NCBI GenBank assembly: GCA_024279115.1
Contig: JAJRRW010000068.1
Span: forward strand, 22,860 to 86,859
Origin: Alphaproteobacteria bacterium
GTDB taxonomy: Bacteria; Pseudomonadota; Alphaproteobacteria; Rhizobiales; JAKIUO01
Direction: 5' to 3'
DNA: 64,000 bases
How positions within the stretch are numbered: position 1 is the stretch's first letter; each line of letters begins with the position of its first letter. This document shows positions 2,945 through 47,757 of this stretch, in pieces. The notes beneath the pieces are model-generated. The model saw nothing but the letters and a program-made list of their open reading frames with translations. It ran no database searches and was not told the DNA's origin. A program made the translations under genes and the position numbers.

Positions 2945-4885
2945 TTATTTGTAGATTTTTTCCACAAGATCGATATGTGGACGTTTGATCATTTCCCATT
3001 CGCCGGTCTTTGGATCGACTTTCGAGTTGACGAAACATTTCCAGTTTTCTTCGTCAAGGTCGAGGAAGTCAGAGCGGTAATAGAAACCAGGATAACGACT
3101 TTCTTCGCGGAACAAGATGTGACGCAGATGCGCTTCACCAGTCCACATACGATGATAGTTTTCCCAGGCACGCATCAGCTCATGGAGATCTTTGGCGCGC
3201 ATGTTCTCACTGTCTTCTTTCAGCATGGCGAGATATTTCAAACCTTCTTCCAGCATAATGCCGTTGGTCTGGTAGTAAGTGGCAACGCCAGCTACATACT
3301 CGTCCATGATTTTCTGCAGACGCATCTGGAACATTTTAGGAGTGATATAATGCGGGTTGATATCTTCCGCAGTGGTCTTGTCCTTATGCTCCATATAGGT
3401 GCGAACAGGCTTGTAGATTTCGTCAGCAAAGCCTTGCGCAGTGCCGTCAAATTCTGGTGCGAAATCGGCGTGATCCTGACAATATTTGACCATTGCCTTA
3501 CCAGCGATACGACCTTCAGCATGTGAGCCTGAAGAGAATTTATGACCAGAAGCGCCAACACCGTCACCAGCTGTAAACAAGCCTTCAACAGTTGTCATGC
3601 GGTCATAACCCCACTGCCATTCGGCAGGCGCGATATCGGAAGGTCCAGAGACCCAGATGCCGCAGCAACCAGAATGTGATCCAAGCAGATAAGGCTCGGT
3701 TGGGATCAGCTCTGATTTGCTTTTCTCAGGGCGAATGTTGAGACCGGCCCAAACGCCAGCCTGTCCAATGCACATGTCGAGGAAATCTTCCCAGGCTTCA
3801 GCAATCAAATGCTTGTACTCGGTTGGATCCATTTTCTCGGCAAGGGCCGCAAGCGCTGTTGGTGTGTCCATGAAGATCGGGCCTTTGCCGTCTTTCATTT
3901 CTTTCAACATCGCATGGTTACGAAGACAAGACGGGATCACGACAGCTTTGTCGTAAGGTCCGTACTGTTCGAGCATGGCAGCGTTTTTGACGAGATAGTC
4001 TTCACCAAAAGCGTTGGTTGCTTTTGATTTAAAGAGCAAGAACCAGGCGCCCACAGGACCATAACCGTCTTTAAAACGGGTTGGAACGAAGCGGTTTTCC
4101 ATCATGGTCAGCTCGGCGCCGACTTCGGAAGCCATGGCATAAGTAGAACCAGCGTTCCAGACAGGATACCAAACACGGCCCATGCCTTCACCTGTTGAGC
4201 GAGGACGGAACACGTTCACAGCACCACCACAGACGTTGAGGATTGCTTTGGCCTTGAAGACGTAGATCTTGTCTTCGCGGTTTGAGAAACCAACAGCACC
4301 GGCGATACGGTTTGGATTGTTTTTGTCGAGCAGATATTTAACGATGAAGACGCGCTCATAGATGTTTTCCATCCCCAGAGCTTTCTTGGCAGCTTCCGCA
4401 ACAATCATCTTGTAGCTTTCACCATTGATCATGATCTGCCAGCCGCCGGAATGAACGGGCTTGCCGCCATCTTTGAGCAGTTTGCCACCTTTGGACTGCC
4501 AGCTTGCGCCATCAACGCGCTTGCCGTCTTCCATTTCTTTCCAAACAGGCAAACCCCATTCTTCAAACAGATGAACCGAATCATTCACATGACGACCAAC
4601 ATCATAGACGAGGTCATCACGGGTGATGCCCATCAGGTCAGCAGCAACATACTGGCAATATTGCTCAGGTGTTTTGCCATCGAGATAGGTGTTAATAGCA
4701 GACAGGCCCATGGCAACCGCACCAGAGCGATCCATAGCAGCTTTGTCTACGAGCGTGATTTTAAGATCGTCGCCAGCCCAGCGCACAGCTTCATAAGCCG
4801 CGCCACAAGCTGCCATACCACCACCCACGAACAGGATGTCGGTATCGATTTCGACGATTTCCGGCTCGCCAAAAGTTCCAGCCAT
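2945..4885 (-). CDS. aprA: Adenylylsulfate (APS) reductase alpha subunit
   Basis: 646 aa. N-terminal FAD fold DILFVGGGMAACGAA, with overall AprA-like sequence and length. Lies immediately downstream of aprB. Confidence 0.95.
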   Translation of the reverse strand: MAGTFGEPEIVEIDTDILFVGGGMAACGAAYEAVRWAGDDLKITLVDKAAMDRSGAVAMGLSAINTYLDGKTPEQYCQYVAADLMGITRDDLVYDVGRHVNDSVHLFEEWGLPVWKEMEDGKRVDGASWQSKGGKLLKDGGKPVHSGGWQIMINGESYKMIVAEAAKKALGMENIYERVFIVKYLLDKNNPNRIAGAVGFSNREDKIYVFKAKAILNVCGGAVNVFRPRSTGEGMGRVWYPVWNAGSTYAMASEVGAELTMMENRFVPTRFKDGYGPVGAWFLLFKSKATNAFGEDYLVKNAAMLEQYGPYDKAVVIPSCLRNHAMLKEMKDGKGPIFMDTPTALAALAEKMDPTEYKHLIAEAWEDFLDMCIGQAGVWAGLNIRPEKSKSELIPTEPYLLGSHSGCCGIWVSGPSDIAPAEWQWGYDRMTTVEGLFTAGDGVGASGHKFSSGSHAEGRIAGKAMVKYCQDHADFAPEFDGTAQGFADEIYKPVRTYMEHKDKTTAEDINPHYITPKMFQMRLQKIMDEYVAGVATYYQTNGIMLEEGLKYLAMLKEDSENMRAKDLHELMRAWENYHRMWTGEAHLRHILFREESRYPGFYYRSDFLDLDEENWKCFVNSKVDPKTGEWEMIKRPHIDLVEKIYK

Positions 4886-4927: not shown

Positions 4928-5428
4928 TCATGCAGCTACACAATATTGATATTCCATTGCAGCTGGCCTCGCTCGGTTAGAGCGAGCCAGCACAACAATG
5001 TCGTTGTTAAGCGATTGTTGGCAGATCACCTCTTCGGTGAACAGGTTGAGGCCATTGATATCACCTGGCTCTGGCTTGTTGCCATAGGGATCAATTGATC
5101 CAACTGGCGTTGTGCGAACCGGGAATTTGTAGCGCTCAACAGCTCCGTCGCGGAACTTGATAGTCCACATAATGGCACTATCGGTACGCAGTGGGATCAC
5201 AGCGCCGCCCATTGGAACCCAGTCAGCAAAAGCGCGGACTTCGATGGCCTGCTGTGGGCAAGCTTTCACGCAGCACTGGCATTCCCAGCACTGTTCAGGT
5301 TCCTGATTGAAAGCTTTCATGCGCTCGGTGTCGAGCTTCATGAGGTTATTTGGACAGATATACATACAAGCGGTGACTTCACCACCTTTACAACCGTCGC
5401 ATTTGTCAGTGTGAACAAAAGTAGGCAT
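4928..5428 (-). CDS. aprB: Adenylylsulfate (APS) reductase beta subunit (2x[4Fe-4S])
   Basis: MPTFVHTDKCDGCKG..CMYICP and CWECQCCVKACP ferredoxin motifs plus the AprB-type C-terminal tail. Gene order is aprB-aprA. Confidence 0.95.
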   Translation of the reverse strand: MPTFVHTDKCDGCKGGEVTACMYICPNNLMKLDTERMKAFNQEPEQCWECQCCVKACPQQAIEVRAFADWVPMGGAVIPLRTDSAIMWTIKFRDGAVERYKFPVRTTPVGSIDPYGNKPEPGDINGLNLFTEEVICQQSLNNDIVVLARSNRARPAAMEYQYCVAA

Positions 5429-6127: not shown

Positions 6128-6607
6128 TCATTCCAATAAATCGATGATTTCAACTTTCTTCTTGGCTTTGGCCACGTCGAGCGCCGTCTCGCCATCCGCG
6201 TCGCAGGTCTTGGCGCTGGCCCCGTGCGATAAAAGCAGTTCCACAATATCTTTTTTGCCACGTGCCGCCGCCCAGTGCAAAGGCGTGCCACCATGCTTGT
6301 CGACAAAACTCGCATCTGCCCCACATTCGATATAGGCATGCACGATCGCCACATTGCCGTTGCGGATACCCTCGATCATGTTTTCGCTGTCATTGAGCTT
6401 GTTGGTGTTCCAGCCCGACACGCCAAAATAGACCAGTTCCCCGTCTTTGACTATTTGCACCATGGGCTCATATGTCAGGGCCTGTGTATCCACCACACAA
6501 GCGCCATTGCCATATTCTTTGGCCGCCGTCTCGGCTCCTTGCATCGATTGAAAGCCATACATAACGCGCCCATCAGGTGAACGCGTAAAATATCTGTGCT
6601 TGGCCAT
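6128..6607 (-). CDS. Ankyrin-repeat protein
   Basis: The C-terminal half carries ANK consensus GGTPLHWAAARGKKDIVELLLSHGA and DGETALDVA. Confidence 0.8.
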   Translation of the reverse strand: MAKHRYFTRSPDGRVMYGFQSMQGAETAAKEYGNGACVVDTQALTYEPMVQIVKDGELVYFGVSGWNTNKLNDSENMIEGIRNGNVAIVHAYIECGADASFVDKHGGTPLHWAAARGKKDIVELLLSHGASAKTCDADGETALDVAKAKKKVEIIDLLE

Positions 6608-7447: not shown

Positions 7448-7577
7448 GACCCGAGCGTTAGCAGAAAAGCCAAGAATCAGATAGCGGCTTATTCATAGCG
7501 ATAGCTTTGGCGCAGGTTTTTCGGCCAGTTACCGTAGACATAAAACAGGCTTTTACAAGGGCTTGACACGCTTGTAT

Positions 7578-8174
7578 TCAACTGTTTGGAGCGCGAACAA
7601 TCTGCACGGGGGCGCCTTTGTCTCGGGGAACAAAACTGGCGAACAAACGAATAGCTGTTGCCTCCATGGACCGAAACCGCAATTTGGCAAATGGCAGAGC
7701 CAGCTTCGACAGCTTGAAATCGGCTATTTTTTCGATACCTGCAGCAACCTTACTCGTTCGACCCGTATAAGGGCCAAATTGCTGCATTTTTTCAATACCG
7801 ACCTTGCCTGGCAGGCGCTTGGCCACTTCTCTTTCCCCGGAAAATTCAATCACCGTCACAAGGCTCATTTTAAAAACCGAAAAGCCTTTATAGACGCCCA
7901 GCAAATCCGGCGACAGCGCCCCGATAGACAGTCCGATGCGCGCGCTATTTTCTGGCCGCTCTGACGCTTTGATCATCAAGGGCGAACTGGCCCATTACCA
8001 GCCACGCGCGGCAAATGTCCGATCAAGGAATGATGTTAATGAGGTAGGTTGAGTGCCAAAATGCGCGGGAAGAGGCTTGAACTGAAACGAAAATCCCATT
8101 GCGCATGCCCGGGCAAAAACAGGTGCCACACCAACCAGCAGCAAGGTGGCAAACAAAAACAACAATGATTTCAA
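7578..8174 (-). pseudogene. Secreted hypothetical protein interrupted by one in-frame TAA (or two adjacent small ORFs)
   Basis: A TTG at 8174 sits behind gggaggg and gives KSLLFLFATLLLVGVAPVFARA, which looks like a signal peptide. The same frame continues into the 7578..7979 ORF, broken only by TAA at 7995-7997. Confidence 0.35.
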
Positions 8175-8441
8175 TTCGAACCCTCCCTATGGAATGTCGG
8201 TATGACCACGAAAGTCACCTTCTGACAAACGCCCCCCCCAATAACAGCCAGGCCAGCCTCACACGAGCTAGAATTGACATGCCCAAACTCAACCATGCGA
8301 ACAATCTTCATGGGGGCTGCGCTGTATCTTGAGGTGCAAAAGCGGCGCGAACTGGTTTTTATATTGAACCAGATCCAGTGTCGAAACGACAAATAAATAT
8401 AGGCTTCAAGCTTATGCTTATTTAATTCAAAGGAGTGGACA

Positions 8442-8786
8442 ATGATTTACAAGATTTTACTGACCTCTATCGCCATCGTGATGAGCACCACTATCGGCAG
8501 CGCCATGTCATTGGGTCCAGCCACCTCGCAACTGGGAGCATCCGTTGGCAACAACCAGCTGCAATTGATCGCGGACCGAAAAGACACGCGATCGAAACGG
8601 CGCGGTAGCCGCCGTAATACTAACAAGCTGTCGGCCTCACGAGGAGGCGTCAAAGACACCTGCCCTGGCGGAAACAAGCCCTGTATCAAAAAGCTTAAAG
8701 CCAGTTGCGACAAAGCCGGTGGCGGATTATCGACCGAGCCAGATGGCGGCGTGGACTGCTATGTCGTTGGTATTCATGACCAATAG
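8442..8786 (+). CDS. Small secreted basic/Cys-containing hypothetical protein
   Basis: RBS aaaggag lies 8 nt upstream. N-terminal signal-like MIYKILLTSIAIVMSTTIGSAMS. No family recognised. Confidence 0.5.
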   Translation: MIYKILLTSIAIVMSTTIGSAMSLGPATSQLGASVGNNQLQLIADRKDTRSKRRGSRRNTNKLSASRGGVKDTCPGGNKPCIKKLKASCDKAGGGLSTEPDGGVDCYVVGIHDQ

Positions 8787-9035
8787 TAGATGAGCCCCGG
8801 CGATATGAGGCTTGGAATGTTCCCCCTGGCATTTCGAGCCTCGAATTCCCTCTGGCGAGGTAATCCCAATGACAAGGGCGGGACCACCAATGCGGCCCCG
8901 CCCTTCAAATTTCGATATGTGTCACCCCAGCGGGGGCTGGGGTCCATACTCCCTTGCCCCTCAATTGAGAGAATGAACCCCCAATCGAAAGACTTGTGTA
9001 TGAATCCTCGCCTGCGCGGGGATGACAAATTCAGT

Positions 9036-10223
9036 TTAGTCATTCAGGCCTTGATAATAGTCCATCAGGATTTGCGCGACTTCGGGGCGCGAAAACTCTT
9101 TGGGCGGCGCTTCACCATTGCCGAGCATTTCGCGCACTGCGGTGCCAGATAGAAGCACGAAGTCTTCCTTGTTGTGATCCGGGGCTTCGCGCATCATCAC
9201 GACCTTATCGAGTTTTTTCGAGTAAGCCGTGTGGTCAGCGGCGAAAATTTCCAGTTCCAGAGCACCGGCTGGCACGTCGTCGAAAATTTCCTGAGCGCCA
9301 AAATCGGTGTAATAGTCACCAACCCCTGCGTGATCACGACCAACGATCAGATGGGTTGCCCCCATATTCTGGCGGAACACGGCATGCAGTACGGCTTCAC
9401 GTGGTCCGGCATAGAGCATATCGAACCCATAGCCGGTGACCATGGCGCTGTTTTCGGGGAAATAGATGTCGACCATCTTGCGGATCGAGGCATCGCGCAC
9501 ATCAGCAGGAATATCGCCCGCTTTCAACTTGCCCAGCAACATGTGAATGACCAGGCCATCAGCATCAAGACGGTCCATGGCCATGTGGCACAGCTCTTCA
9601 TGAGCACGATGCATGGGGTTACGGGTCTGGAAGGCCACAACCTTGTTCCAGCCGCGCGCCTTGATCTCGTCGCGAATTTCAACGGCGGTTTTGTAGGTAT
9701 CGCCAAAATCACTCTCGAAATAGGAATAGTTGAGCACCTGAATGGGGCCCGAAAGCGCCACATTGCCAGCCGCCAAAAACGCCCCAACCCCGGGATGGTC
9801 TTTGTCGGTGGTACCATAAACCTTTTCAGCCACGGTCATCATTTCCTCATCGGAAAAAGCCTCAACCGCTTCAACATTCATAATGGCAATCACCGGATTG
9901 CCATCGACATTGGGATCTTTCAAGGCAATGCGGTCCCCGGAACTGATCGAACCGGCGTCACGCACCATGTTGACAACCGGAGTTGGCCAGAACAGGCCGT
10001 TGGTGGTTTTCATGCCTTGAGCAACTGACAAGGTATCGGCCTTGTTCATATAACCGGTCAGCGGGTTGAAATAACCACCGCCCAGCATCACCGCATTGGC
10101 AGCGGCGGCCGAACTGACAGTGATTGATGTGAGACCATTTGCCTCGCTTTGCAGTTTTTCGTTTTCGGCAGGATCGGAGACGAACAGGGGATTGAGTTCA
10201 TCGGAGCCATGGGGCTTTATCAT
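9036..10223 (-). CDS. sat: Sulfate adenylyltransferase (ATP sulfurylase), single-domain dissimilatory type
   Basis: QTRNPMHRAHEEL and GRDHAGVG motifs. The start at 10223 (MIKPHG) has gaggaag upstream; the ORF track extends to 10250. Confidence 0.95.
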   Translation of the reverse strand: MIKPHGSDELNPLFVSDPAENEKLQSEANGLTSITVSSAAAANAVMLGGGYFNPLTGYMNKADTLSVAQGMKTTNGLFWPTPVVNMVRDAGSISSGDRIALKDPNVDGNPVIAIMNVEAVEAFSDEEMMTVAEKVYGTTDKDHPGVGAFLAAGNVALSGPIQVLNYSYFESDFGDTYKTAVEIRDEIKARGWNKVVAFQTRNPMHRAHEELCHMAMDRLDADGLVIHMLLGKLKAGDIPADVRDASIRKMVDIYFPENSAMVTGYGFDMLYAGPREAVLHAVFRQNMGATHLIVGRDHAGVGDYYTDFGAQEIFDDVPAGALELEIFAADHTAYSKKLDKVVMMREAPDHNKEDFVLLSGTAVREMLGNGEAPPKEFSRPEVAQILMDYYQGLND

Positions 10224-10618
10224 CGCATCTTCCTCTAAGGTAACTATCATAATTGCGGGCCCTGATCACACCGATACCCGACGAGATGGTCGATCATGAC
10301 AGGTTCAAATAATGTGATGGGCTGCTTTCGTTTATCCATCACAGCGCTTTATTGCAAGCCCCCCAACCGCCCTTATTGACGCATTATTCCCCTTAGAACC
10401 TCCCTTATCGGCGCCAAACATTGATGCAAACCCCCGGCTTTTTAGGGACATTTATTAAAAAATCAGAAGATTTGAACATTCGAAAATTTACAGATATGAA
10501 AATTTGCGCTATGTCTGGCGGAAAGAATACCAAAACCGATCCCCTTTATAACCAGTCAGCTCGCTATTGGGTCTGGCAATTTGAAGTATGGATCACCATG
10601 AGGATGGAGGCTTTTTGC

Positions 10619-12289
10619 ATGGCTGGTGACGACGATCTGGAAGACGAATTTGCGGCGTTTGAACGCGAAGCAAAAGAAGCGGCTGCCAAAGCCCAGGAAG
10701 AAATGGCCAAAAACGCCAAAAAGGCGGAGCCCGCAGCTGAACCTGTTGCCGCGAGCGATGAGCCAGAAGAAGAAGACGAATTTGCAGCCTTTGAGCGTGA
10801 AGCCAGAGAAGCTGCCGCAGCCGCGGCCTCTTCCATGGGCGGCGGCGCAAGCGGCGGCACGTCCAGCGCAACCGCTTCAAGTGCACCAAAAGCTGACGAC
10901 AAAGCTGACGAAGAGGAAGAAGACGACACTCCCGTTGGTGTGCTGTCCGATGCTGAAAAAGCCGAAAGAGACGCGGCGCAAGCGGCGGCGGTTAAAACCA
11001 TTAACAAGGCCTCCAAGGCCCTGTTTGGCGCCACCAGCCAGACCATTCTTGTGGTCGGCGGTGGTATCGCTGGTGTCACGGCTGCCATTGAAGCGGCTGA
11101 AACCGGTTATGACGTCATACTGCTGGAAAAAAATTCCTATCTTGGTGGGCGGGTAACGCGGCTGAATCGCTATTTCCCCAAACTCTGTCACCCCTCTTGT
11201 GGTCTTGAGATCAACTATCAGCGCATCAAAAACAATCGCAATCTGAAAGTCATGACCATGACAGAAGTTGTTGGCGTTTCTGGCGCCAAGGGCGATTACA
11301 AGGTCAAAATCAAAACCGCACCGCGTTTTATTGACGAAGGTTGCAACGGTTGTGGCTCTTGTTCCAATGCCGTTGAGACAACCGTCGACAATGAATATAA
11401 TTACGGCATGGATCAGATCAAGGCGGTCAACCTGCCCCACGAACATGCCTTTCCCATGAAATATGTGATGTCACCAGACGTCATCGGCACCGATGATGCT
11501 GACAAAATCAAGGAGGCCTGTACGTCTGGTCATGTTGATCTTGAGGCCACCGCTACGGATGGCGATCTGTCGGTTGGAGCCATCATCTGGGCCACCGGCT
11601 GGACACCATATGACAGCAACAAGCTGGAGCATTACAGCTACAGTCATAGTGCCGACATCATCAATAATGTTGAGATGGAACGCCTCGCCAGTCCAGATGG
11701 ACCAACCAATGGCAAAATTCTCAAGCCATCGGATGGCAAAGAGCCCAAACGCATCGCCATGATCCAGTGTGCCGGATCGCGCGACATCAATCATCTGCCT
11801 TATTGCTCGATGATCTGCTGCCTCGCCAGCCTCAAGCATGCCGCTTATGTGCGTGAACAATATCCCGACGCGGAGGTTGATATTTATTATATCGACATTC
11901 GCGCCCACGATAAGATGAGCAGCTTTTATGAGCGCGTCAAACGCGACGCCAAAGTCAATTTCATCAAATCAAAACCCGGTCACATCACCATTGGTGCTGA
12001 TGGTCGCCCCTTGATCCACGGTGAAAATACCATCGGTGATCGTGAAATTTACGATGAAGCTTATGATCTCGTCGTTCTGGCCACAGGCATGGAGCCTAGC
12101 CTGCCCCTCGAAACAGATTTCGAAGCGGCCCCCGAACGCGACGAATATGGCTTCGTCATCAATGGATCGGACAGTGACAATGGTCAGTTCGCAGCTGGCG
12201 TTGCCGGTGGTCCATTTGACGTTGCGCTATCAACACAAACAGCAACAGCTAGCGCCTTGAAGGCCATTCAAGCTGTTCGCGGTAACTAA
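10619..12289 (+). CDS. qmoA: QmoA-like HdrA-family flavoprotein with a roughly 140-aa acidic/Ala-rich N-terminal extension
   Basis: The ATG at 10619 sits 8 nt after ggagg. FAD fold VVGGGIAGVTAAIEAAETG follows the extension. QCAGSRD and MICC motifs are HdrA/QmoA-like. It is the first gene of a four-gene operon. Confidence 0.85.
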   Translation: MAGDDDLEDEFAAFEREAKEAAAKAQEEMAKNAKKAEPAAEPVAASDEPEEEDEFAAFEREAREAAAAAASSMGGGASGGTSSATASSAPKADDKADEEEEDDTPVGVLSDAEKAERDAAQAAAVKTINKASKALFGATSQTILVVGGGIAGVTAAIEAAETGYDVILLEKNSYLGGRVTRLNRYFPKLCHPSCGLEINYQRIKNNRNLKVMTMTEVVGVSGAKGDYKVKIKTAPRFIDEGCNGCGSCSNAVETTVDNEYNYGMDQIKAVNLPHEHAFPMKYVMSPDVIGTDDADKIKEACTSGHVDLEATATDGDLSVGAIIWATGWTPYDSNKLEHYSYSHSADIINNVEMERLASPDGPTNGKILKPSDGKEPKRIAMIQCAGSRDINHLPYCSMICCLASLKHAAYVREQYPDAEVDIYYIDIRAHDKMSSFYERVKRDAKVNFIKSKPGHITIGADGRPLIHGENTIGDREIYDEAYDLVVLATGMEPSLPLETDFEAAPERDEYGFVINGSDSDNGQFAAGVAGGPFDVALSTQTATASALKAIQAVRGN

Positions 12290-12306: not shown

Positions 12307-14577
12307 ATGAGCGAAGAAGTTTTCGAACACAAACCCGCCGCCTATCTGTGCGGTGGTTGCGGCATCAAGGATGCTCTGGATATGGATGCGCTGGAAACAG
12401 CCATCACCGGCGGCATGATGGTCTCCAATGTCAAACAGTCCGATGCCTTTTGTTCCGGCAAGGGCCTGGAGACGATCAAGAGCGACATGAAAAGCGGCGA
12501 CGTCAATCAAGCCATTGTAGCTGGTTGTTCGCCGCGGGTCATGGTGCAGGAATTTAATGAGGTCGGCGGTCAGGTGTTTCGCGCCAATATGCGTGAACAG
12601 GTGATCTGGCAACAGCCCGCCAATAACGAAGACACGCAGGCCCTGGCCACCGATAATATGCGCATGGCCATTACCCAGGCCCGCAAGTCCGAGCCACCCC
12701 AGGCTCATTGGGATGGCGCAACCTCTTTGAAACTACTGGTGGTCGGCGGTGGTATCACCGGCCTGACAGCGGCGCGCGAAGCCTCCAAAACCGGTGCCCA
12801 AGTGGTGATTGTTGAAAAGACCGACAAGCTGGGCGGCTGGGCTGGCAAATGGAGCAAATTCATTCCCGAAAATGCCCCGTACCGCGAGCCTGAAGACAAT
12901 CCCGTCCCTGCCCTCATCGCCGAAGTCGAGAACGATGACAATATCACGGTATTGTTCGACACGATTGTCGATCGCACCGAAGGTGGTCCAGGTGAATTTT
13001 CCTGCCGCCTGAAAAATGGTTCGGGGACCAATTGGGATATTTATGGCGCGGTGGTTTTGGCCACGGGCTGGCGTCCTTACACCAGCGAAGATCAAAAGAA
13101 ATTCGGCATCGGCGAAACCGATGGCGTTGTCACCGACATTGAGATGGAAGAAAAGCTGTCCTCTGGTGATCTCAAAGATGTCAAAAATATCATCTTCATC
13201 ATCCCCGGCGATAGCGACCGCATGGTCTACAGCTCCGGCGTCTCTGACAAGGTGGCCATCAAACAGGCTCTGCAAATGACGCAGGCCGATCCCGATGTGA
13301 TGGCCTATATCATTCATGAAGATTTCCGCTCTCATGGTCTGGCCGAAGAATTTTATCGCCACGCCCAGGAAAAAGGCGTCATCTTCCAGCGCGGCGAAGT
13401 GAAAAGCATCAGCTCTGATCGAACCGTCACCGTTGATGACGAGCTTCTGGGGCTGGAAATCCCCATGAGCGGCATTGATCTGGTGGTTGTCTCAACCGGC
13501 ATGGTTCCCAACTCCACCAATATTGATCTTGAGGCCACCGAAAGAGGCGCCGATCAATTAAAGTCCGACATCAACCCCGTTGCGCCGATCTTTACGGTCA
13601 ACGGGACGCAGGTTGACGAGGACCTCGCGGAAACGGCGGCTGACGCTGAAGCAGAGGAAACGATCCCCGAAGGGGGTCCTCTGCTCAACCTGCAATATCG
13701 TCAAGGACCCCATGTGCCGGTTCTGGCCAACGGCTTTGCGGACAGTCACTATATCTGCTTCCCCTATGAAACACGCCGCTCGGGCATCTACACGGCTGGT
13801 CCGGTGCGCCGCGCCATGACTGCCTCTGAAGCCATCAACGATGCACAAGGTGCCGTCCTCAAGGCCATTCAGGCCATGCGTCAGGCCAATGAGGCCAAGG
13901 CGGTTCATCCGCGTGCGGGCGATTTGTCGTTCCCAGAATTTGGTCTCGATATCTGCACCAAGTGCCGTCGCTGCACGGTGGAATGTCCGTTCGGTGCCAT
14001 TGATGAAGATCCTGAAACTGATTATCCAGTGGTCAACCCGACGCGTTGTCGTCGTTGCGGCACCTGCATGGGCGCTTGTCCCGTGAGCACCATCAGCTTC
14101 AAAAACTACAATCCGGCCCAGGTCTCCGACATGGTTGCCGCTGGTACAGAAGAGTGCCCTCCCGACAAACCACGTATTCTGGTGCTGGCTTGCGAGAACG
14201 ATGCTTATCCGGCAATGGATATGGCGGGCATTAACAGACTTGAAGCCAGTCCCTATATGAGAGTGATACCGGTGCGCTGCCTTGGCTCCGTGACCCTTTT
14301 GTGGGTCAAAACGGCGCTGGAAAAAGGCTATGATGGCATCATGCTGCTGGGCTGCAAATCCGGCGATGATTATCAGTGTCATTTCGTCAAGGGATCCGGC
14401 ATTGCGCAAGAACGCATGAGCAAGGTGGGTGACACGCTACGCTCCATGATGATGGAAGAAGAACGGGTCCAGGTCAACGAGATCGCCATCGCCGACAGCG
14501 AGCGGGTCACACAGATCCTCAATAATTTTGGCAAGCAGATCGAAGATATCGGTCTCAACCCATTTAAAGGATTTTAG
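12307..14577 (+). CDS. qmoB: QmoB-like HdrA-family flavoprotein with two ferredoxin motifs and a C-terminal MvhD-like domain
   Basis: VVGGGITGLTAA. Ferredoxin motifs CTKCRRCTVECP and CRRCGTCMGACP. The C-terminal ILVLACENDAYPA..VRCLGSV..GCKSGDDYQCHF matches the MvhD/FlpD type. Confidence 0.9.
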   Translation: MSEEVFEHKPAAYLCGGCGIKDALDMDALETAITGGMMVSNVKQSDAFCSGKGLETIKSDMKSGDVNQAIVAGCSPRVMVQEFNEVGGQVFRANMREQVIWQQPANNEDTQALATDNMRMAITQARKSEPPQAHWDGATSLKLLVVGGGITGLTAAREASKTGAQVVIVEKTDKLGGWAGKWSKFIPENAPYREPEDNPVPALIAEVENDDNITVLFDTIVDRTEGGPGEFSCRLKNGSGTNWDIYGAVVLATGWRPYTSEDQKKFGIGETDGVVTDIEMEEKLSSGDLKDVKNIIFIIPGDSDRMVYSSGVSDKVAIKQALQMTQADPDVMAYIIHEDFRSHGLAEEFYRHAQEKGVIFQRGEVKSISSDRTVTVDDELLGLEIPMSGIDLVVVSTGMVPNSTNIDLEATERGADQLKSDINPVAPIFTVNGTQVDEDLAETAADAEAEETIPEGGPLLNLQYRQGPHVPVLANGFADSHYICFPYETRRSGIYTAGPVRRAMTASEAINDAQGAVLKAIQAMRQANEAKAVHPRAGDLSFPEFGLDICTKCRRCTVECPFGAIDEDPETDYPVVNPTRCRRCGTCMGACPVSTISFKNYNPAQVSDMVAAGTEECPPDKPRILVLACENDAYPAMDMAGINRLEASPYMRVIPVRCLGSVTLLWVKTALEKGYDGIMLLGCKSGDDYQCHFVKGSGIAQERMSKVGDTLRSMMMEEERVQVNEIAIADSERVTQILNNFGKQIEDIGLNPFKGF

Positions 14578-14579
14578 AC

Positions 14580-15179
14580 ATGACAGTCCCTATGCCGACA
14601 TCCAGTCGCAAATATGATCTCAATTTTGCCCGCTGGGTCCGCGACAATGTCGCGGGCGGCGACAAAATGAACATGTGCATGCAATGCGGCACCTGTTCGG
14701 GTTCATGTCCCATCGGCACAGAAATGGAAGATGGTCCGCGCAAACTGTTCATGATGATCAGAGCCGGCATGAAAGAAGAAGTGCTTTCCTCCAATTCTGT
14801 TTGGGAATGTACCAGCTGCTATCGCTGTGTGGTACGATGCCCGCGCGGCGTCCCTGTCACCTATCTGATGCAGGGCCTGGCGGCTCTTGCCTCCAAAGAG
14901 GGCTATGCCCCCAAAGTTGAGAACAATTATTTCTCGCGATATTTCTGGAAGAGTGTTGAGCTTACCGGCAAGACCGATGAACGCCTTGTGCCCACGGCCT
15001 ATTTCTTCTCATTTGGCCTGATCGAGGGCATCAAGCGCTCACTTGGCAATCTGAAGATTGCCTTCAACATGGCCAAAGCTGGACGCATGCATATCGGACT
15101 GCCTCACCGCATCAAGGATACCAAAGGCCTCAAGGCCATCCTTGCCAAAGCCGCGCAAATCGAAGATCAAAAAAGCTAG
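14580..15179 (+). CDS. hdrC: HdrC-like 4Fe-4S dicluster subunit
   Basis: CMQCGTCSGSCP and CTSCYRCVVRCP motifs. Starts 2 nt after the qmoB stop. Confidence 0.8.
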   Translation: MTVPMPTSSRKYDLNFARWVRDNVAGGDKMNMCMQCGTCSGSCPIGTEMEDGPRKLFMMIRAGMKEEVLSSNSVWECTSCYRCVVRCPRGVPVTYLMQGLAALASKEGYAPKVENNYFSRYFWKSVELTGKTDERLVPTAYFFSFGLIEGIKRSLGNLKIAFNMAKAGRMHIGLPHRIKDTKGLKAILAKAAQIEDQKS

Positions 15180-15191
15180 GAAGGGAGTTTT

Positions 15192-16100
15192 ATGATGAGT
15201 AAGAAAAAGAAAATGACCTATTATCCGGGCTGTAGTTCGCAAGGCTCGGGTCGCCATCTGGACGAATCTATCCGCGCAATCCTGCCTGATCTCGGGGTTG
15301 ACGTGGTTGATATTGATGACTGGAACTGTTGCGGAGCCTCCGTTGGTAATATTGGTGGTGGCCCCTTGCCCAACCTGGCGCTGACAGGCCGCAATCTGGC
15401 TCTGGCACAAGAACAGGGCAATCAGGACATTGTGACCGGTTGTGCCGCTTGCTATTTGAACACTCATGGCGGCAATGAGAAAATCAAGGCTGACGTCAAA
15501 AAACGTCGCGACGTCAATGATGCTCTGGGAGAGGCTGGCCTTTCCTATGATTACGACCTCGATGTACATCACGTCATGGAAGTCATCGTCAATGATATCG
15601 GCATGGAAGAAGTCGAGAAACAAGCCACCAACAAGCTCAAGGGCCTCAAAGTGGCCGGCTGGGTCGGCTGCCAGACGGTGCGCCCGTTCGCGGGGACGGA
15701 AACAGGTGGCAAATACGCCACCTATGAAGACCCCACCTTCCTTGACGAGATCACAGAAGCCTGCGGCGCTGAAGTCACCGACTTTGCTCCCAAGACGAAC
15801 TGCTGCGGTGGGTCTGTTGCCGTTATGAAACCCGAAAAAACCCTGCACCTGATGAAAACCATTCTCGATGCAGCCGTTGAATCTGGCGCTGACGTGGTGA
15901 GCACTCCTTGCCCGCTTTGCCAGACCAATCTGGAAATGTATCAAGACGCCATCAACAAGGAATTTGGCACGAACTATAATATGCCAGTGGTGTTCCCCAG
16001 CCAGCTCATCGCGGTTGCCATGGGCAAGGACAAGGAAAAGGATGCCGGCCTGCAACGCCAGACCATCCGCTCGAAAAAACTTGAAGATATGGCCAAATAG
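15192..16100 (+). CDS. hdrB: HdrB-like subunit with two CCG domains
   Basis: YYPGCS..NCCGAS and GCQ..NCCGGS..CPLCQ motifs, i.e. duplicated CCG domains. Confidence 0.85.
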   Translation: MMSKKKKMTYYPGCSSQGSGRHLDESIRAILPDLGVDVVDIDDWNCCGASVGNIGGGPLPNLALTGRNLALAQEQGNQDIVTGCAACYLNTHGGNEKIKADVKKRRDVNDALGEAGLSYDYDLDVHHVMEVIVNDIGMEEVEKQATNKLKGLKVAGWVGCQTVRPFAGTETGGKYATYEDPTFLDEITEACGAEVTDFAPKTNCCGGSVAVMKPEKTLHLMKTILDAAVESGADVVSTPCPLCQTNLEMYQDAINKEFGTNYNMPVVFPSQLIAVAMGKDKEKDAGLQRQTIRSKKLEDMAK

Positions 16101-25249: not shown

Positions 25250-28200
25250 CTACTGCACAACCGCGCCCTCACCGACCACCACAAAAGGGGCCCAATAGGA
25301 GGGGTGCGAGGCCAGATCATCGTCTTTCTTTTGAAGCACCCACAACATGGCCAGACGCAGCGCCTCGGCTCTGCCAACGGGCTGACCGGCGGTTTGCCCC
25401 TCGTCAATATATTTGAAGGCTTTGGTGGTCAGCAAGGTGGCGGCGTCTGAATAGACCGGCCAGTGGGAGACCAGCAGCGATTTGGCGCCTGCGTAAAAGA
25501 ACGCCTGCGCCAGACCTGACAGAGCTTCGGCCCCCGGCTTATCGCCAGAGGCGGTGTTGCAGGCCGACAGCACAACCCAGTCCGCATTGAGGTGCAATTG
25601 CGTAACTTCTGATGCGGTGAGCAGGCCATCGTCGATAGTGGTGGCCTTTTGCGGCACACTGAGCGCCAGAGCGGGCTCCCCCAATCCCTTGATATCTCCC
25701 GATATCAGCCCGTGCGTGGCGAAATAAACGATCTTGTGACGCGCCAGTTCACCAGACTTGTTCAACTGTTTGACAATGGCCTCGCTGGCCCCTCGCCCCA
25801 GCTTGATGTCGCCAAGCGGTACATTGAGCGTCTTGGCGACATTGATCAGCTCGTCTCTGGTGTCGGGCAATTGCGACAGCTGTGACAGGGCCGCCAGGTT
25901 GACCTGCCCACCGCGATAAAAACTGGCAAAACCAGCCGTGTTCGAGACCCGCGCGATGGGCTTTTTTTGTTGCGAAAACACCGGATCTCCAAAACCGATC
26001 AGGGCCTTAGGCGGGCTGTCGCTTTTACCGGCAAACTGGCGCAAGGCTTTGAGGGAGGCGATACTTGGCAAAGTGGTCAGGGCATATTTTTTAATCAACC
26101 AGCTTGCCTCGCGATAGATTTGACTTTCGCCTGGCGCGCCAGATGTGGGCGGGTCGGTGATCAACACCTGAAACGGCAGACCGGTCAAGGCGTCCGACGC
26201 GATGATGATCAGATGTTTCTTGCTGCCGATGACGTCTTCGAGGGGTTGCAGCAGATCCTTGTAGAGCTTGTGCGAAGCATCCAGATCAAACGAGGTTTTG
26301 ACTTTCACCTCCAGGGCCGGTTGCGCATTTGATGCAAACCCCCTTGTGCCAGCGGTCAGCGGATTGAGGGAGAGCCGCAAATGGGCTACCTGTTTGCGCA
26401 ATTCGCTGCGCTTCAGGGGCACCCGGTGCCAGGCGAATTGTGTATTGGTCAGCGCCCAGATATAAACCGCCTGATTGGAGGTCATGAAATAAATCAGCGC
26501 CTCATCGCCTTGAAGCTGTTTTTGAACATCGCTGCCGGTCAGCGGTTGGGGATTGGCAAGGCTGGCATATTCAGGAAACTGCGCAGCCAGTTTTTGATCA
26601 AGGCTTTTGATCTTGTCGCCGACCTCGATGAGCGAAACCCGCAGCCTTTTAATCGCCGCACCATCACGCGATTTGCTGGTCGCACCAACCAGGGAGGCCA
26701 GCTTGCTATCGAGTTTGGTATAACGCCGTGTGAGGTACTGACGGTGGCGCACATTGCTGGCCAACTGCCCACTACCCGCCGCAAAACGCGCCGACATTTG
26801 CGCAAGAGCCGCGCCTGCCGAGGTGCGAAGGGCTTTTTGCGCCGCATGCAACCCCTGTTCCATCAAGGCATCGCGATTTGAGCCGGTTTTTTGCAGCAGA
26901 TCCTTGTTGCTGGCCACATGCCACGAGGTGATCGCCAGACCGGAAAACACACCGCGACGCCCGCCGCCTTTGGCATCATTTTTACCTTCTTGTTTATGGA
27001 TCAGTTGCAGTTCTTCAATGCGCGCGGCCCGGCGATAATTGGCAAGGGCAACAAGATAGTTCTGCTGCCACAGATAAAGCTTGCCCATCTGATAATGAAT
27101 ATAGCCGGTTTTGATATGATCGCGACCATTGGCCTTGATGGAAATCTCCAGCGCCTTTTTATAATGGCGCTCAGAAGCGACATAATCCTGGCGGGCAAAA
27201 TCATTTTCGCCAAGCAATCGCCAGATATTGGCCAGCATGGGATGGTTTTCGCCAAAGGCTTTTTGATTGATCGCGATGGCTTTACGAAACAGTTTTTCCG
27301 CGCCTATATAATCTTTGCGATTGCCGTAAAGAGCGGCCAGATTGCTCATGGCAAGGGCCACTTGCGGATGGCGGGGGCCATAGGCCTTGAGCAGCGCATC
27401 CATGGCCAGCTTATAGGTCTTTTCAGCCGCCACAAATCGCTTGGCGATGCGATAGGAGCCGGCCAGATTATCATAAAATACGCCGATCTGTGGATCGGAG
27501 GGCCTTGCGGGTTTTAGATAGATGGCAATTCCACGCTCTTGCAGCTTTATGGCCTCGCCTGTGCGGCCCTGATAGCCATAGACAGCGGCCAGATTGTTCA
27601 GGGCCAGCGACACCGTGCGATGCTCGGGACCCAGATTTTCTTCAAATAGGGCCAGCGCTTTCTTGTGAAATTTCTCGGCCACATCAAATTTCTCAATCTC
27701 GATATTGAGCACACCAAGATTGTCGTAAAGACGCCCCAGATTGATCGGTTTGGCATTGCTGGCATCCAGATGAAAAGCCAGCGCTTTTTTATAAGCAGCG
27801 CCACTTTCGCCATAACGCCCGGTTTCGCGGTACAGCCCGCCCAGATTGCTGTAAACTGCACTTAATGTGGTTTTTTTTGGTTTTGATCGGGCCTGCTCGC
27901 GTTTGAGCGCCGTCTTCATCAAAGTCTCGGCTTTCTTGAATCTGGCGATTTGACGATTGAGCTGACCCAGAAAAATCATCGCATGAATGACTTTGGTGGC
28001 GCTTTCGCCCTCTTTTTTTATGAGAATTTCAAGGCGCCGCGCATAGACTGGTACCGCCGCTTCATAGCGCCCCAGATCCTCATAAAGCGTCGCCAGATTA
28101 CGCAGATGAACCAGTAATTGCGGGCTGTCTTTCCCTTCTTTTTTTTCGGTAATTTCAATCGCCCGCACCAGCGCCCGCCCCGCCAGGTCAAAATCCTTGG

Positions 28201-29149
28201 CGCGGTAAGCATAAGCCGACAAACGATTATGCTTGCCCGCCAGAGAAATATCATCAACGCCGAGCTTGGCTTCATTGAGGGAAATGAGCTGTTTGGCCAG
28301 CAAAATGGCCCGATCATACTGTTTCAGGCTGGAGGCGATTTCCGACAATTCCGTCATGGTCTGCAAGGTCAGGGGATGATCTGGACCTAACAGGATTTTG
28401 CGCGCTTGATAGACCTCGTCAAATAGCGTGATCGCAGCTTTATAATCTTTTTGCTTGGTATAAATTACCGCCCGATTGCTGATCGACATTATAGTGGTTT
28501 TATGGCGTCGCCCCAGCACCGTTTCATTGATGTTGATGGCGCGCTTGATCTTGACAATGGCCCCGCCATACTCCCCCGCATTGATCTCAATAACCCCCAG
28601 GCGATCAAGCGCAAAGGCAAGTCGTTTGGCATTTTTGGGAGGCGTACCACCATACAGCTCCACAAGCTGCAACAAGATTTTGGTTTCTTTGGCTGGCTGA
28701 CCGATCGCCAACAAGGCTGTTTGCAGATCTTCCAGGGTCCCCAATATGCGCTTGTCATTTGGCGGAAGCAGAGCCTTGCGGATCGCCAACGCCTCTTCAT
28801 AAAGGGGCACCGCGTGCTTGTAGCGCCTCGTCGAGGTATAAAGGACGGCCAGATTATTGATCTGGGACGCCGTCACCAGATGCTTGTTACCCAGCAGCTT
28901 GCGCGCCAGTTTAAGAGCTGTTTCGACCTCGACTTCCGCCTCCTTGTAGAGCTTTAATTTAAAGAAGTTCAAAAACAGCGCATGGGCCTTTTTAAAACGG
29001 GCGATGTCGCTGGCCTGGGAGCTGGAGAGTTCGGATTTCGCAGCTTTTGGCTTCGCCTCCTCGCCACTGGCCGCAACAAACATGCCCAAAGAAAACAATA
29101 GGATTGATGTCAAAAACATCGAGAAACTGCGTCTAAAATGAGAGGCCAT
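25250..29149 (-). CDS. Secreted multi-TPR protein with C-terminal CHAT (caspase-like) protease domain
   Basis: Signal peptide MFLTSILLFSLGMFVAASG. About 900 aa of TPR-like repeats (NLAxxY..G.Y.eAe periodicity). The C-terminus has the His/Cys dyad context YFATHG and VVLSACNTASGD. Confidence 0.9.
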   Translation of the reverse strand: MASHFRRSFSMFLTSILLFSLGMFVAASGEEAKPKAAKSELSSSQASDIARFKKAHALFLNFFKLKLYKEAEVEVETALKLARKLLGNKHLVTASQINNLAVLYTSTRRYKHAVPLYEEALAIRKALLPPNDKRILGTLEDLQTALLAIGQPAKETKILLQLVELYGGTPPKNAKRLAFALDRLGVIEINAGEYGGAIVKIKRAININETVLGRRHKTTIMSISNRAVIYTKQKDYKAAITLFDEVYQARKILLGPDHPLTLQTMTELSEIASSLKQYDRAILLAKQLISLNEAKLGVDDISLAGKHNRLSAYAYRAKDFDLAGRALVRAIEITEKKEGKDSPQLLVHLRNLATLYEDLGRYEAAVPVYARRLEILIKKEGESATKVIHAMIFLGQLNRQIARFKKAETLMKTALKREQARSKPKKTTLSAVYSNLGGLYRETGRYGESGAAYKKALAFHLDASNAKPINLGRLYDNLGVLNIEIEKFDVAEKFHKKALALFEENLGPEHRTVSLALNNLAAVYGYQGRTGEAIKLQERGIAIYLKPARPSDPQIGVFYDNLAGSYRIAKRFVAAEKTYKLAMDALLKAYGPRHPQVALAMSNLAALYGNRKDYIGAEKLFRKAIAINQKAFGENHPMLANIWRLLGENDFARQDYVASERHYKKALEISIKANGRDHIKTGYIHYQMGKLYLWQQNYLVALANYRRAARIEELQLIHKQEGKNDAKGGGRRGVFSGLAITSWHVASNKDLLQKTGSNRDALMEQGLHAAQKALRTSAGAALAQMSARFAAGSGQLASNVRHRQYLTRRYTKLDSKLASLVGATSKSRDGAAIKRLRVSLIEVGDKIKSLDQKLAAQFPEYASLANPQPLTGSDVQKQLQGDEALIYFMTSNQAVYIWALTNTQFAWHRVPLKRSELRKQVAHLRLSLNPLTAGTRGFASNAQPALEVKVKTSFDLDASHKLYKDLLQPLEDVIGSKKHLIIIASDALTGLPFQVLITDPPTSGAPGESQIYREASWLIKKYALTTLPSIASLKALRQFAGKSDSPPKALIGFGDPVFSQQKKPIARVSNTAGFASFYRGGQVNLAALSQLSQLPDTRDELINVAKTLNVPLGDIKLGRGASEAIVKQLNKSGELARHKIVYFATHGLISGDIKGLGEPALALSVPQKATTIDDGLLTASEVTQLHLNADWVVLSACNTASGDKPGAEALSGLAQAFFYAGAKSLLVSHWPVYSDAATLLTTKAFKYIDEGQTAGQPVGRAEALRLAMLWVLQKKDDDLASHPSYWAPFVVVGEGAVVQ

Positions 29150-30756: not shown

Positions 30757-32133
30757 ATGCGCAAAGTATTCACCTTGCTTGCTTGCTTAACAGCCCTTTA
30801 CAGCCTGTTGATGAACGATCAGGCGCTGGCCGCCACCGGCTGCCCCTCCGGCGGGGCGATCAGCAAACATCAACGTGAGATGCTGGACAAGCTGCCCCCG
30901 CCAATGCAAACCATCCTGCAAGCGGTCAGACGCCAGACCCAAACCGCCTGCCAGGCCCCTGTTAGCAGCCAGTTACCATCTACGGTAATAGATCCTTTTT
31001 TCATTCCCGTTGGTCTGGATACCAACTCACCAGCCATAGATGGCGAGGCCACTCCAGATGAAGTGGTGGCGATGATCAATGGAGATGGCGCCAATATTGA
31101 TGCCGTTGCCGCCAGCAACGGTCTCACCGTACGCAGCCGGCGGCGCTCTGCCCTGCTTGGCGCGTTCATTGTACGCTTTGGCATCACTGATGGCCGCTCC
31201 CCAGCTGCTGCCATTGCCCTCTTGCAGGCCAATGGCGCCATCGACACCCCCGGCCCCAACCACCTCTATCGGTTACAAGGCTCCGTGCGGGAGCCAAATG
31301 CCTTCGAAAAGGCCCGCTATGCCCCCCAGAAATTTGGCCGACCAGCAAGCGGTTTGCAACTGACGGGAAAAGATGTCGTCATTGGCGTCATTGATACCGC
31401 CATCGACCCGGACCATCCTGACCTCAAAGACGCGGTGCTTGAAAGCTATGATGCCCTGCCCGATCAACCGGTCAATAACCGCCGTCACGGCACCGCGGTT
31501 GCCGGTTTGCTGGCCGGGCGCTCGATGATCCTTGGGGTCGCCCCAAAAGCCAGACTGCTGGTAGCGCGGGCTTTTGATGTGCCGGTCAAAAATGCCAAGG
31601 CCAGCGCCACCACCTATCAAATCCTTGAAGCCCTTGACTGGACGGTCGAAAAAGGCGCCCAGATTATCAATATGAGTTTCACCGGTCCTCGCAATAATCT
31701 GATGTCAAAAGCCTTGTCGGCGGCCGCCGGAAAAAATGTGCTGCTGATTGCCGCCGCTGGCAATAATGGCCCCAAGGCGCGCCCGGCCTATCCTGCGGCC
31801 GAACAATCCGTACTGGCGGTGACGGCGACTGACGTGGACAATCGCATCTATTCCCATGCCAATGCGGGAGGCTATGTATTTGTCGCCGCTCCTGGCGTCG
31901 ATGTGCTCGCCGCCGTGCCTGACAACGGCGTCGATATGGTCAGCGGCACCAGCTTTGCCGCGCCATTTTTGTCGGGTCTGGCCGCCTTGATGCTGGAACA
32001 AAACAAGGGGCTGACGCCTCGCCAATTTGCCAAAACCATCGAGCTGACCTCCCATGATCTTGGTCAGCCCGGGCGCGACCATGTGTTTGGCGTCGGGCTG
32101 GCGAACCTGACCAAAGCGCTGGCACAAAAATAA
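30757..32133 (+). CDS. Secreted subtilisin-like serine protease (peptidase S8) with propeptide-like N-region
   Basis: Triad contexts VIGVIDTAID, HGTAVAGLLAG and SGTSFAAPFLSG, plus a signal peptide. The start abuts the anti-sigma stop (TAGATG). Confidence 0.9.
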   Translation: MRKVFTLLACLTALYSLLMNDQALAATGCPSGGAISKHQREMLDKLPPPMQTILQAVRRQTQTACQAPVSSQLPSTVIDPFFIPVGLDTNSPAIDGEATPDEVVAMINGDGANIDAVAASNGLTVRSRRRSALLGAFIVRFGITDGRSPAAAIALLQANGAIDTPGPNHLYRLQGSVREPNAFEKARYAPQKFGRPASGLQLTGKDVVIGVIDTAIDPDHPDLKDAVLESYDALPDQPVNNRRHGTAVAGLLAGRSMILGVAPKARLLVARAFDVPVKNAKASATTYQILEALDWTVEKGAQIINMSFTGPRNNLMSKALSAAAGKNVLLIAAAGNNGPKARPAYPAAEQSVLAVTATDVDNRIYSHANAGGYVFVAAPGVDVLAAVPDNGVDMVSGTSFAAPFLSGLAALMLEQNKGLTPRQFAKTIELTSHDLGQPGRDHVFGVGLANLTKALAQK

Positions 32134-47495: not shown

Positions 47496-47757
47496 GCTTA
47501 AAACCTCCAATTTTGCTGTATTGTCCCCCATGCCTTTCTGGCTCGTTCAGGGGGGTATTGATGGAGGCTAGGTTATGGGGATAGGATAAACTGCTACCTA
47601 GGTATCATCAGGAGAGGTAAAATCTGCGACATATACGACCTCGCGCCCCTCACCGGACAATAATCGCTCAACCATGTAACCAATTGTGGCTATGACCTTG
47701 GGTTCCAAGATCATCCAGCTCTAAAATAGCAAGAGAGTAGAAAGCAGATAAAACCAT

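Follow-up and report, generated by a model that had tools for sequence, protein, structure and literature searches.

The gene qmoA in the stretch of DNA analysed here (64,000 nucleotides of a contig from an uncultured alphaproteobacterium of marine type, Hyphomicrobiaceae-like to judge by its relatives; referred to throughout as the window) encodes an HdrA-like flavoprotein whose catalytic core is preceded by an N-terminal arm of about 140 residues. Comparison with related sequences identifies this arm as a conserved, clade-specific module and not as random low complexity. It appears to be an undescribed feature on a known enzyme subunit, QmoA; in a literature search, 'QmoA' together with 'N-terminal extension' was unmatched, as were the motif strings of the arm. 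Our favoured reading, to which we assign a probability of roughly 45%, is that the arm acts as a docking tether, bivalent or multivalent, through which a putative partner would be recruited to the soluble QmoAB-HdrCB complex.

The arm is built around the motif DEFAAFEREA(K/R)EAAA, which is found at residues 9-23 (nt 10643-10687) and again at residues 53-67 (nt 10775-10819). A preliminary description of the window, made from the sequence alone, had reported the motif twice; both copies were recovered with slightly corrected coordinates, the underlying DNA repeat lying at 10640-10686 and 10772-10818. They are followed, as was also described, by the stretch GGGASGGTSSATASS at residues 74-88 and by an EEEEDD run at residues 98-103. 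Read as codons, the two copies of the DNA repeat differ at eight nucleotides, and seven of these differences are synonymous while the eighth replaces Lys with Arg, which indicates selection on the peptide in the QmoA frame. A six-frame regular-expression scan of the window proteins for the motif returned the two QmoA copies and nothing else. Taken whole, residues 1-139 consist of 29% Ala and 26% Asp plus Glu, carry a net charge of -21 and contain no Cys.

A search with the full protein found, besides one identical entry at NCBI, about 35 more long forms, 533-669 aa in length and 57-92% identical over the full length, which stem from NCBI, JGI, ENA and Logan assemblies. Copy number is two to four in 35 long forms of 556-669 aa and in every complete long form, and the repeated unit has as its consensus an acidic run followed by D-E-F-A-A-F-E-(R/A)-E-A-(K/R)-(E/A)-A-A-A-x-A-x-x-x-M. 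The sole protein with an apparent single copy (P0037) results from a truncated gene call, whose first residue is the conserved Met of the unit before. When 45 units are aligned, F11, F14, A18 and A25 are invariant, and D9, E10, A12, A13, E15, A21-23 and M29 are conserved in at least 90%. Two subtypes hold across the clade: first copies have a Leu four residues ahead of DEF (DLEDEF...AAAKA), and last copies read EEEDEF...AAAAAA..MGGGA(S/A)G. Copies are spaced 31 to 58 residues apart in the homologues.

The units and the sequence between them differ in how they evolve. We calculated pN, the number of nonsynonymous differences per site, from codon alignments of the window gene with five orthologues. 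Against the nearest relatives (loci L037 and L038), pN of the motifs is 0.000-0.016, with the exception of motif 2 against L037 (0.050), compared with 0.05-0.11 for the catalytic core and 0.10-0.23 for the linkers. Against the distant relatives (L088 and L085) the corresponding values are about 0.12 for the motifs, 0.21-0.22 for the core, which reaches 0.23 overall, and up to 0.56 for the linkers. Since synonymous sites are near saturation in motifs, core and linkers alike, these sequence comparisons show that the motif islands are constrained at least as much as the enzyme core, while the linkers drift. The antisense open reading frames (ORFs) across the arm had been put down to by-products of a skewed repeat, and this is borne out: read in the QmoA frame, the overwhelming majority of the substitutions that separate relatives are synonymous, so that the antisense and alternative-frame ORFs are not genes.

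The same pattern answers the objection that the arm is not protein at all. If the true start lay near residue 140, the repeat would be an untranslated leader or an assembly artefact, and GC-rich low-complexity repeats can indeed yield spurious ORFs. This explanation is essentially refuted by the synonymous nature of seven of the eight differences between the copies, by a motif pN near 0 at saturated synonymous sites, by the presence of the arm in about 35 independent assemblies from four sources, by the lack of any Met between residue 73 and the Rossmann fold, and by a good GGAGG 8 nt ahead of the start codon, ATG 10619-10621. The start proposed in the preliminary description, with GGAGG at 10606-10610, is also the one that relatives favour. 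Orthologue N-termini all read M-[A/T/V]-x-[D/N/S], a stop codon lies at most two codons upstream of the equivalent Met in L085 and L108, and the nearest relative (MCF6198750.1, 563 aa, from a Hyphomicrobiaceae metagenome-assembled genome, or MAG) is annotated by NCBI with the same start. Two further in-frame ATGs, at 10598 and 10604, would extend QmoA by 5-7 residues and are conserved in the nearest relatives alone. The comparison thus supports ATG 10619, and the orthologue starts, the upstream stops and the absence of Met from residue 73 to the Rossmann fold together make a start near 11040 very unlikely. A promoter and terminator scan of 10200-11200 gave nothing beyond shuffled expectation. 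With VVGGGIAGV beginning at residue 145 (nt 11051), the estimate of about 140 residues ahead of the FAD (flavin adenine dinucleotide) fold stands, and the substitution pattern marks this extension as real and translated.

The protein is a QmoA by its fold, its sequence and its synteny, although the compact architecture that defines the family is not kept. Pfam matches to FAD_oxidored, NAD_binding_8 and DAO, all of the FAD/Rossmann fold, run from residue 143 on, and neither Pfam nor NCBIfam covers residues 1-112. The NCBIfam models HdrA2 and HdrA cover residues 125-552 (E = 1e-100 and 6e-80, below their equivalog cut-offs), and alignments to the HdrA models start no earlier than residue 113-140. 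The nearest solved structures to the core are those of methanogen HdrA (8rvv and 5odc, E about 1e-75), and a CAGSRD segment is conserved within the HdrA-like FAD fold. There are no Fer4 ferredoxin matches. Close homologues carry the JGI label 'quinone-modifying oxidoreductase subunit QmoA', and over its core (residues 140-556) the protein shares 62-73% identity with ordinary QmoA of 420-430 aa. The core is of QmoA size, but the total of 556 aa exceeds the 410-430 aa or so expected of QmoA, owing to the arm. The statement in the preliminary description that QmoA proteins have some 400-420 residues and start close to the fold agrees with the nearest short forms, which have 420-430 aa and 10-16 residues before the fold. 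Ordinary QmoA proteins share the HdrA-like FAD core and the linkage to qmoB, sat and aprBA but do not have the repeated-motif arm of 140 residues. The extension is not common among ordinary QmoA sequences; it is specific to a lineage of about 35 long forms, and the preliminary description was right to call it unusual.

HdrA itself also has some 130 residues ahead of its FAD domain (5odc, 8rvv), in the same topological position as the arm. In HdrA, however, these residues form a folded iron-sulfur domain with four Cys, whereas the QmoA arm is free of Cys, largely disordered and composed of a repeated helix motif. The idea that the arm is a degenerate HdrA N-terminal domain was rejected on the repeated structure and on the absence of Cys from residues 1-139, which shows that the arm is not the HdrA iron-sulfur domain.

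Structure prediction with AlphaFold2 (AF2), run on a 54-sequence alignment, gave a mean predicted local distance difference test score (pLDDT) of 77.6 and a predicted template modelling score (pTM) of 0.71. The core is confident, and helices are predicted ahead of it at residues 8-31 (pLDDT about 75), 54-72 (about 58) and 111-136 (78-83). The linkers at residues 34-50 and 69-105 have a pLDDT below 50 and are predicted to be disordered. On a helical wheel, L7, F11, F14, A18, A21/22, A25 and M29 fall on one face of the helix as a hydrophobic stripe within about 100 degrees (wheel angles 320-60); each motif is predicted from this to be an amphipathic helix that has an acidic cap and a narrow stripe of Phe, Ala and Met. 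The last helix before the core is semi-conserved in the long forms and absent from the short forms in the alignment, and it aligns weakly to the segment before the HdrA FAD domain. The preliminary description had offered a disordered segment as one possibility. That holds for the linkers but not for the motifs or the segment next to the core, which AF2 predicts to be helical. Its other suggestion, a tether or docking arm, fits an arrangement of conserved helical islands in disordered, fast-evolving linkers, always with at least two copies.

Such a composition might instead serve a non-specific role, in which the arm is an acidic entropic bristle, a solubility tag or an autoinhibitory lid, shields the FAD domain or keeps non-partners away by repulsion, and has no dedicated partner. 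The charge of -21, the 29% Ala and the long disordered linkers are all in keeping with this, as is the acidity of the locus proteins overall, which fits a saline habitat, and the arm is dispensable in sister lineages. A bristle, however, needs only a composition. What is found here is a sequence of 25-30 residues held more tightly than the core, with invariant Phe and Ala and drifting linkers, and a non-specific role leaves the minimum of two copies unexplained. We consider it decidedly unlikely.

The motif is also highly specific to QmoA. We built a profile from the 45 units and compared it with 1.84 billion representative proteins; two matched at E <= 1e-3, and both are QmoA: one is a long form and the other is a 52-aa frameshifted QmoA N-terminus (59 bits, E = 2e-11). 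Single motif copies score 39-56 bits against the profile, and this range, together with the 59 bits of the 52-aa fragment, implies that one good copy in another protein would not have been missed. Across 185,579 GTDB species genomes, a degenerate DNA scan with the pattern D[DE]FAAFEx[EA]A found 104 loci. In eight of these the motif is complete and present twice, and every one of the eight is qmoA; the 96 single-copy loci were dismissed as chance matches, other frames or unrelated proteins, for instance lipoyl synthase. The eight genomes comprise three Hyphomicrobiales MAGs, one Hyphomicrobiaceae MAG, one MAG labelled Rhizobiaceae, two 'Alphaproteobacteria' MAGs and 'Bacterium BMS3Bbin10'. A six-frame hidden Markov model scan of the window and 16 related loci (17 in total) likewise matched QmoA only, and a PDB profile search for similar structures returned one chance match (E = 0.5).

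Short conserved islands, fast-evolving flanks of biased composition and predicted disorder are among the marks of short linear motifs in disordered regions, and the arm has all three. By analogy with CP12 with GAPDH/PRK, the Rubisco-binding repeats of CsoS2, CcmM and EPYC1, and the acidic tail of SSB, the arm would belong with conserved motifs in fast-evolving disordered linkers whose copy number varies and which function by binding and not by catalysis. None of these has sequence similarity to the arm, and the arm motif is fused to an enzyme and is not a separate scaffold. A second likeness is to the encapsulation peptides of microcompartments (the N-termini of PduP, PduD and EutC), in which an amphipathic helix and a flexible linker precede the enzyme domain. 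It is the basis for an explanation by targeting, under which the terminal helix and its poorly conserved linker would direct Qmo to a microcompartment, a polar microdomain or the membrane; sulfite is reactive, and a cell might gain by confining it. Against this, the helix of the arm occurs as a repeat, is much richer in acidic residues and Ala, and belongs to a single enzyme, whereas targeting peptides are usually common to several cargo enzymes. No shell-protein or encapsulin gene occurs among the annotated ORFs of the window or the neighbouring loci, and a look at the locus level found no BMC or EutN shell gene among the annotated neighbours. Strong negative charge disfavours binding to an anionic membrane, and the N-terminus (MAGDDDLEDEF...) shows no Sec or Tat signal features, having neither a hydrophobic stretch nor a twin arginine. 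Targeting is thus very unlikely.

The N-terminus of short QmoA proteins, M-x-x-G-x-x-SQTI(L/A), leads straight into the Rossmann fold. No hidden or unannotated extension precedes their genes: stops lie close upstream or the upstream sequence lacks the motif, so the short forms are genuinely short. In a neighbour-joining tree of the cores, which is indicative only, the long forms fall into two groups and the short forms P0039 and P0048 are nested inside. This suggests, on sequence grounds, an old acquisition of the arm followed by losses or transfers. The locus of P0039 (L112 7703-11263) has a rearranged 5' flank in which a methyl-accepting chemotaxis (MCP) gene replaces sat and the ankyrin gene otherwise found beside it. 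The rearranged flank is consistent with loss of the arm by rearrangement and suggests that the two events occurred together.

A correlate of the arm was sought in the surrounding genes. Loci with the long form (the window, L001, L106, L107 and L108) and with the short form (L109, L111 and L113) share a layout of an ankyrin gene, sat and divergent qmoA-qmoB-hdrC-hdrB, often with aprBA and a CxxCxxCC-domain gene nearby. The preliminary description had linked the arm to the missing membrane subunit, QmoC, by way of a partner substituting for it. A role for the arm in replacing QmoC or compensating for its loss is not sustained: close relatives with a short QmoA have the same qmoA-qmoB-hdrC-hdrB order without qmoC, so that presence of the arm does not go with absence of QmoC. 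That hdrBC can take the place of qmoC has already been documented in sulfur oxidisers and Gram-positive sulfate reducers (PMC10356861, PMC2211403). The ankyrin-repeat protein was likewise rejected as a co-varying partner, its gene being equally present in L109, L111 and L113.

Electrostatics point to one candidate. HdrC alone among the locus proteins is basic (+6 to +15 in relatives), as against the charge of -21 on the arm, while QmoB, Sat, AprA and HdrB are all strongly acidic. HdrC is an electrostatically plausible candidate for contact with the acidic arm, or with the membrane; it is basic in long-form and short-form loci alike.

The arm as a whole comprises two modules of 25-30 residues, each an acidic cluster followed by a predicted amphipathic helix, which are joined by disordered linkers of Ala, Ser, Gly, Pro and acidic residues, and a third predicted helix that packs into the start of the FAD domain. 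Under the docking-arm reading the arm works through binding: its helices would engage a groove or helix on a partner protein in the manner of fly-casting, and the tether would hold this partner near the soluble QmoAB-HdrCB electron-transfer complex. The likeliest partner would lie within the module that takes sulfite through APS (adenosine 5'-phosphosulfate) to sulfate (AprBA and Sat), or would be the basic HdrC or an electron acceptor. Because sister lineages do without the arm, it is not needed for the basic chemistry and would instead be an accessory that adjusts how the complex assembles or how electrons are channelled. An interaction of Qmo with AprAB is known solely from Desulfovibrio QmoABC, where the contact with AprAB is made by QmoA (PMC3333476), and Ramos et al. 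(2012) detected binding between QmoABC and AprAB but not electron transfer and proposed a third partner (PMC3333476).

Several observations weigh against docking. Gene content is identical between long-form and short-form loci, and a comparison of five loci of each kind found no discriminating insertion or alignment column in AprA, AprB, Sat, Ank, QmoB, HdrC or HdrB. The absence or loss of the arm in the nested short forms P0039 and P0048 marks it as dispensable. AF2 confidence for the second helix is moderate (pLDDT about 58), and the Ala-rich hydrophobic stripe fits self-association equally well. The last point leads to an explanation by self-assembly, in which helices with an Ala/Phe stripe would pack within or between chains and so dimerise or oligomerise Qmo-Hdr complexes, or form a higher-order assembly or condensate. 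Helices that pack against one another typically show just such a stripe, narrow, made of small residues (F, F, A, A, A, M) and spaced much like a heptad; no complete protein has fewer than two copies, and four are reached in some; no partner in the locus co-varies with the arm; and the motif is confined to QmoA, as binding to itself would predict. Nevertheless, the helices are highly acidic and their like charges would push them apart, the linkers between them are long and disordered, unlike tight hairpin loops, and the prediction of helix 2 is of only moderate confidence for this purpose as well. The distinction between first-copy and last-copy subtypes, kept across the clade, is more like that between two different binding sites. 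On balance self-assembly seems unlikely.

Coordinates of the arm, of qmoA and of the genes around it are collected in Table 1.

Table 1. Elements of the QmoA arm and genes of the sulfur oxidation locus in the window
Feature	Position (nt)	Strand	Basis
qmoA, long form, 556 aa; HdrA-like FAD flavoprotein with N-terminal arm of about 140 aa	10619-12289	+	translation, Pfam, NCBIfam, PDB
Shine-Dalgarno-like GGAGG, 8-nt spacer to ATG	10606-10610	+	read from sequence
Motif copy 1, residues 4-31, DDDLEDEFAAFEREAKEAAAKAQEEMAK; acidic cap and predicted amphipathic helix	10628-10711	+	AF2, helical wheel, pN; 48 bits against motif profile
DNA direct repeat, copy 1, 47 nt	10640-10686	+	repeat search
Linker 1, residues 32-46; variable in sequence and length	10712-10756	+	AF2 pLDDT <50; pN 0.19-0.56 between relatives
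Motif copy 2, residues 47-80, DEPEEEDEFAAFEREAREAAAAAASSMGGGASGG; conserved MGGGA(S/A)G tail typical of last copy	10757-10858	+	AF2; 52 bits against motif profile
DNA direct repeat, copy 2, 47 nt, 83% identical, 132 nt on (44 codons, in frame)	10772-10818	+	repeat search
Linker 2, residues 81-106; Ser/Thr/Ala-rich, then EEEEDD	10859-10936	+	AF2 pLDDT 35-41; unconserved among long forms
Pre-core helix (predicted), residues 107-139; leads into SQTIL-VVGGG at start of Rossmann fold	10937-11035	+	AF2, long/short alignment
aprA (APS reductase)	2945-4885	-	Pfam PF12139 and PF00890/PF02910 (aprB and aprA together)
aprB (APS reductase)	4928-5428	-	Pfam PF12139 and PF00890/PF02910 (aprB and aprA together)
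Ankyrin-repeat gene	6128-6607	-	
sat (ATP sulfurylase), divergent from qmoA	9036-10250	-	Pfam PF01747, PF14306
qmoB, 756 aa; FAD domain, 4Fe-4S ferredoxin domains, MvhD/FlpD-like C-terminus	12307-14577	+	Pfam, NCBIfam
hdrC-like iron-sulfur subunit, 199 aa, charge +11, in qmoC position	14580-15179	+	Pfam/NCBIfam, including N-terminal part of QmoC model
hdrB-like subunit, 302 aa, two CCG cysteine-rich domains	15192-16100	+	Pfam PF02754, NCBIfam HdrB

Together with qmoA, the surrounding genes form a complete locus for an oxidative or reverse APS pathway, in which sat is divergent from qmoA-qmoB-hdrC-hdrB and aprBA lies about 5 kb upstream; synteny is the same in relatives. The ankyrin protein (about 160 aa, cytoplasmic) has an N-terminal part of 80 residues with no known assignment, followed by ankyrin repeats. 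Its gene lies by sat in nearly all loci and is kept with long or short QmoA (counterparts at L001 7490-7975, L106 7497-7985, L107 8193-8684, L108 7938-8429, L109 7996-8493, L111 7379-7897 and L113 8118-8606), which is unusual for a conserved member of a dissimilatory sulfur locus. Directly downstream of aprA, a protein of about 320-330 aa with a CxxCxxCC domain (PF03692) is conserved; it is encoded at 871-1875 on the minus strand of the window and at L001 2456-3451, L107 4557-5504, L109 3480-4439, L110 15873-16850, L111 3228-4202 and L113 4463-5416. AprB of the window has 166 aa, against 139-142 aa in relatives, and diverges after ...NLFTEE (4928-5050, minus strand, the 3' end of aprB). Another frame at this end reads GDLPTIA*, like the ending G..LPTL/I* of the relatives, and the tail is probably the product of a 1-nt frameshift, either an assembly error or a real mutation. 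The C-terminal half of HdrC is an amphipathic segment rich in Lys and Arg.

Between the DUF2461 gene and sat (7500-9035, about 1.5 kb), no ORF has a Pfam or NCBIfam match; relatives have DUF302 or MazG-like genes at this position. A small ORF there (8442-8786, 114 aa) has a signal-peptide-like N-terminus and a basic, Cys-containing tail. Farther along the window, 37556-38590 (plus strand) encodes a metallo-beta-lactamase/rhodanese fusion that is persulfide-dioxygenase-like and a possible source of sulfite, and 45912-47531 (minus strand) encodes a sulfur transport protein of the YeeE/YedE type. Both are consistent with an oxidative sulfur metabolism that feeds AprBA and Sat. A 1299-aa TPR-repeat protein with a C-terminal CHAT protease-like domain (25250-29149, minus strand), with a subtilase-family peptidase nearby (30757-32133, plus strand), possibly forms a signalling or defence-type module.

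The arm may bear on how Qmo couples APS reductase to the electron-transport chain, also in the soluble QmoAB-HdrBC version of sulfur oxidisers. Were the arm only a solubility or self-association device, its importance would be limited to the annotation of a clade. At the other extreme, and as a long shot, the DEFAAFE-type repeat would be a multivalent scaffold motif that assembles APS reductase, ATP sulfurylase and QmoAB-HdrCB into a cytoplasmic sulfite-oxidation metabolon or condensate in marine alphaproteobacteria of the Hyphomicrobiales type. If this were true, the scaffold motif would confine reactive sulfite or APS and channel electrons, and it would for the first time give physical access to the third partner, or electron acceptor, that has long been sought for Qmo. 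A motif as tight as the core and always present in at least two copies is a natural bait for finding Qmo contacts. The arm also offers a clean bacterial case of a domain-less motif added on to a core redox enzyme, with repeated gain, duplication (from two to four copies) and loss.

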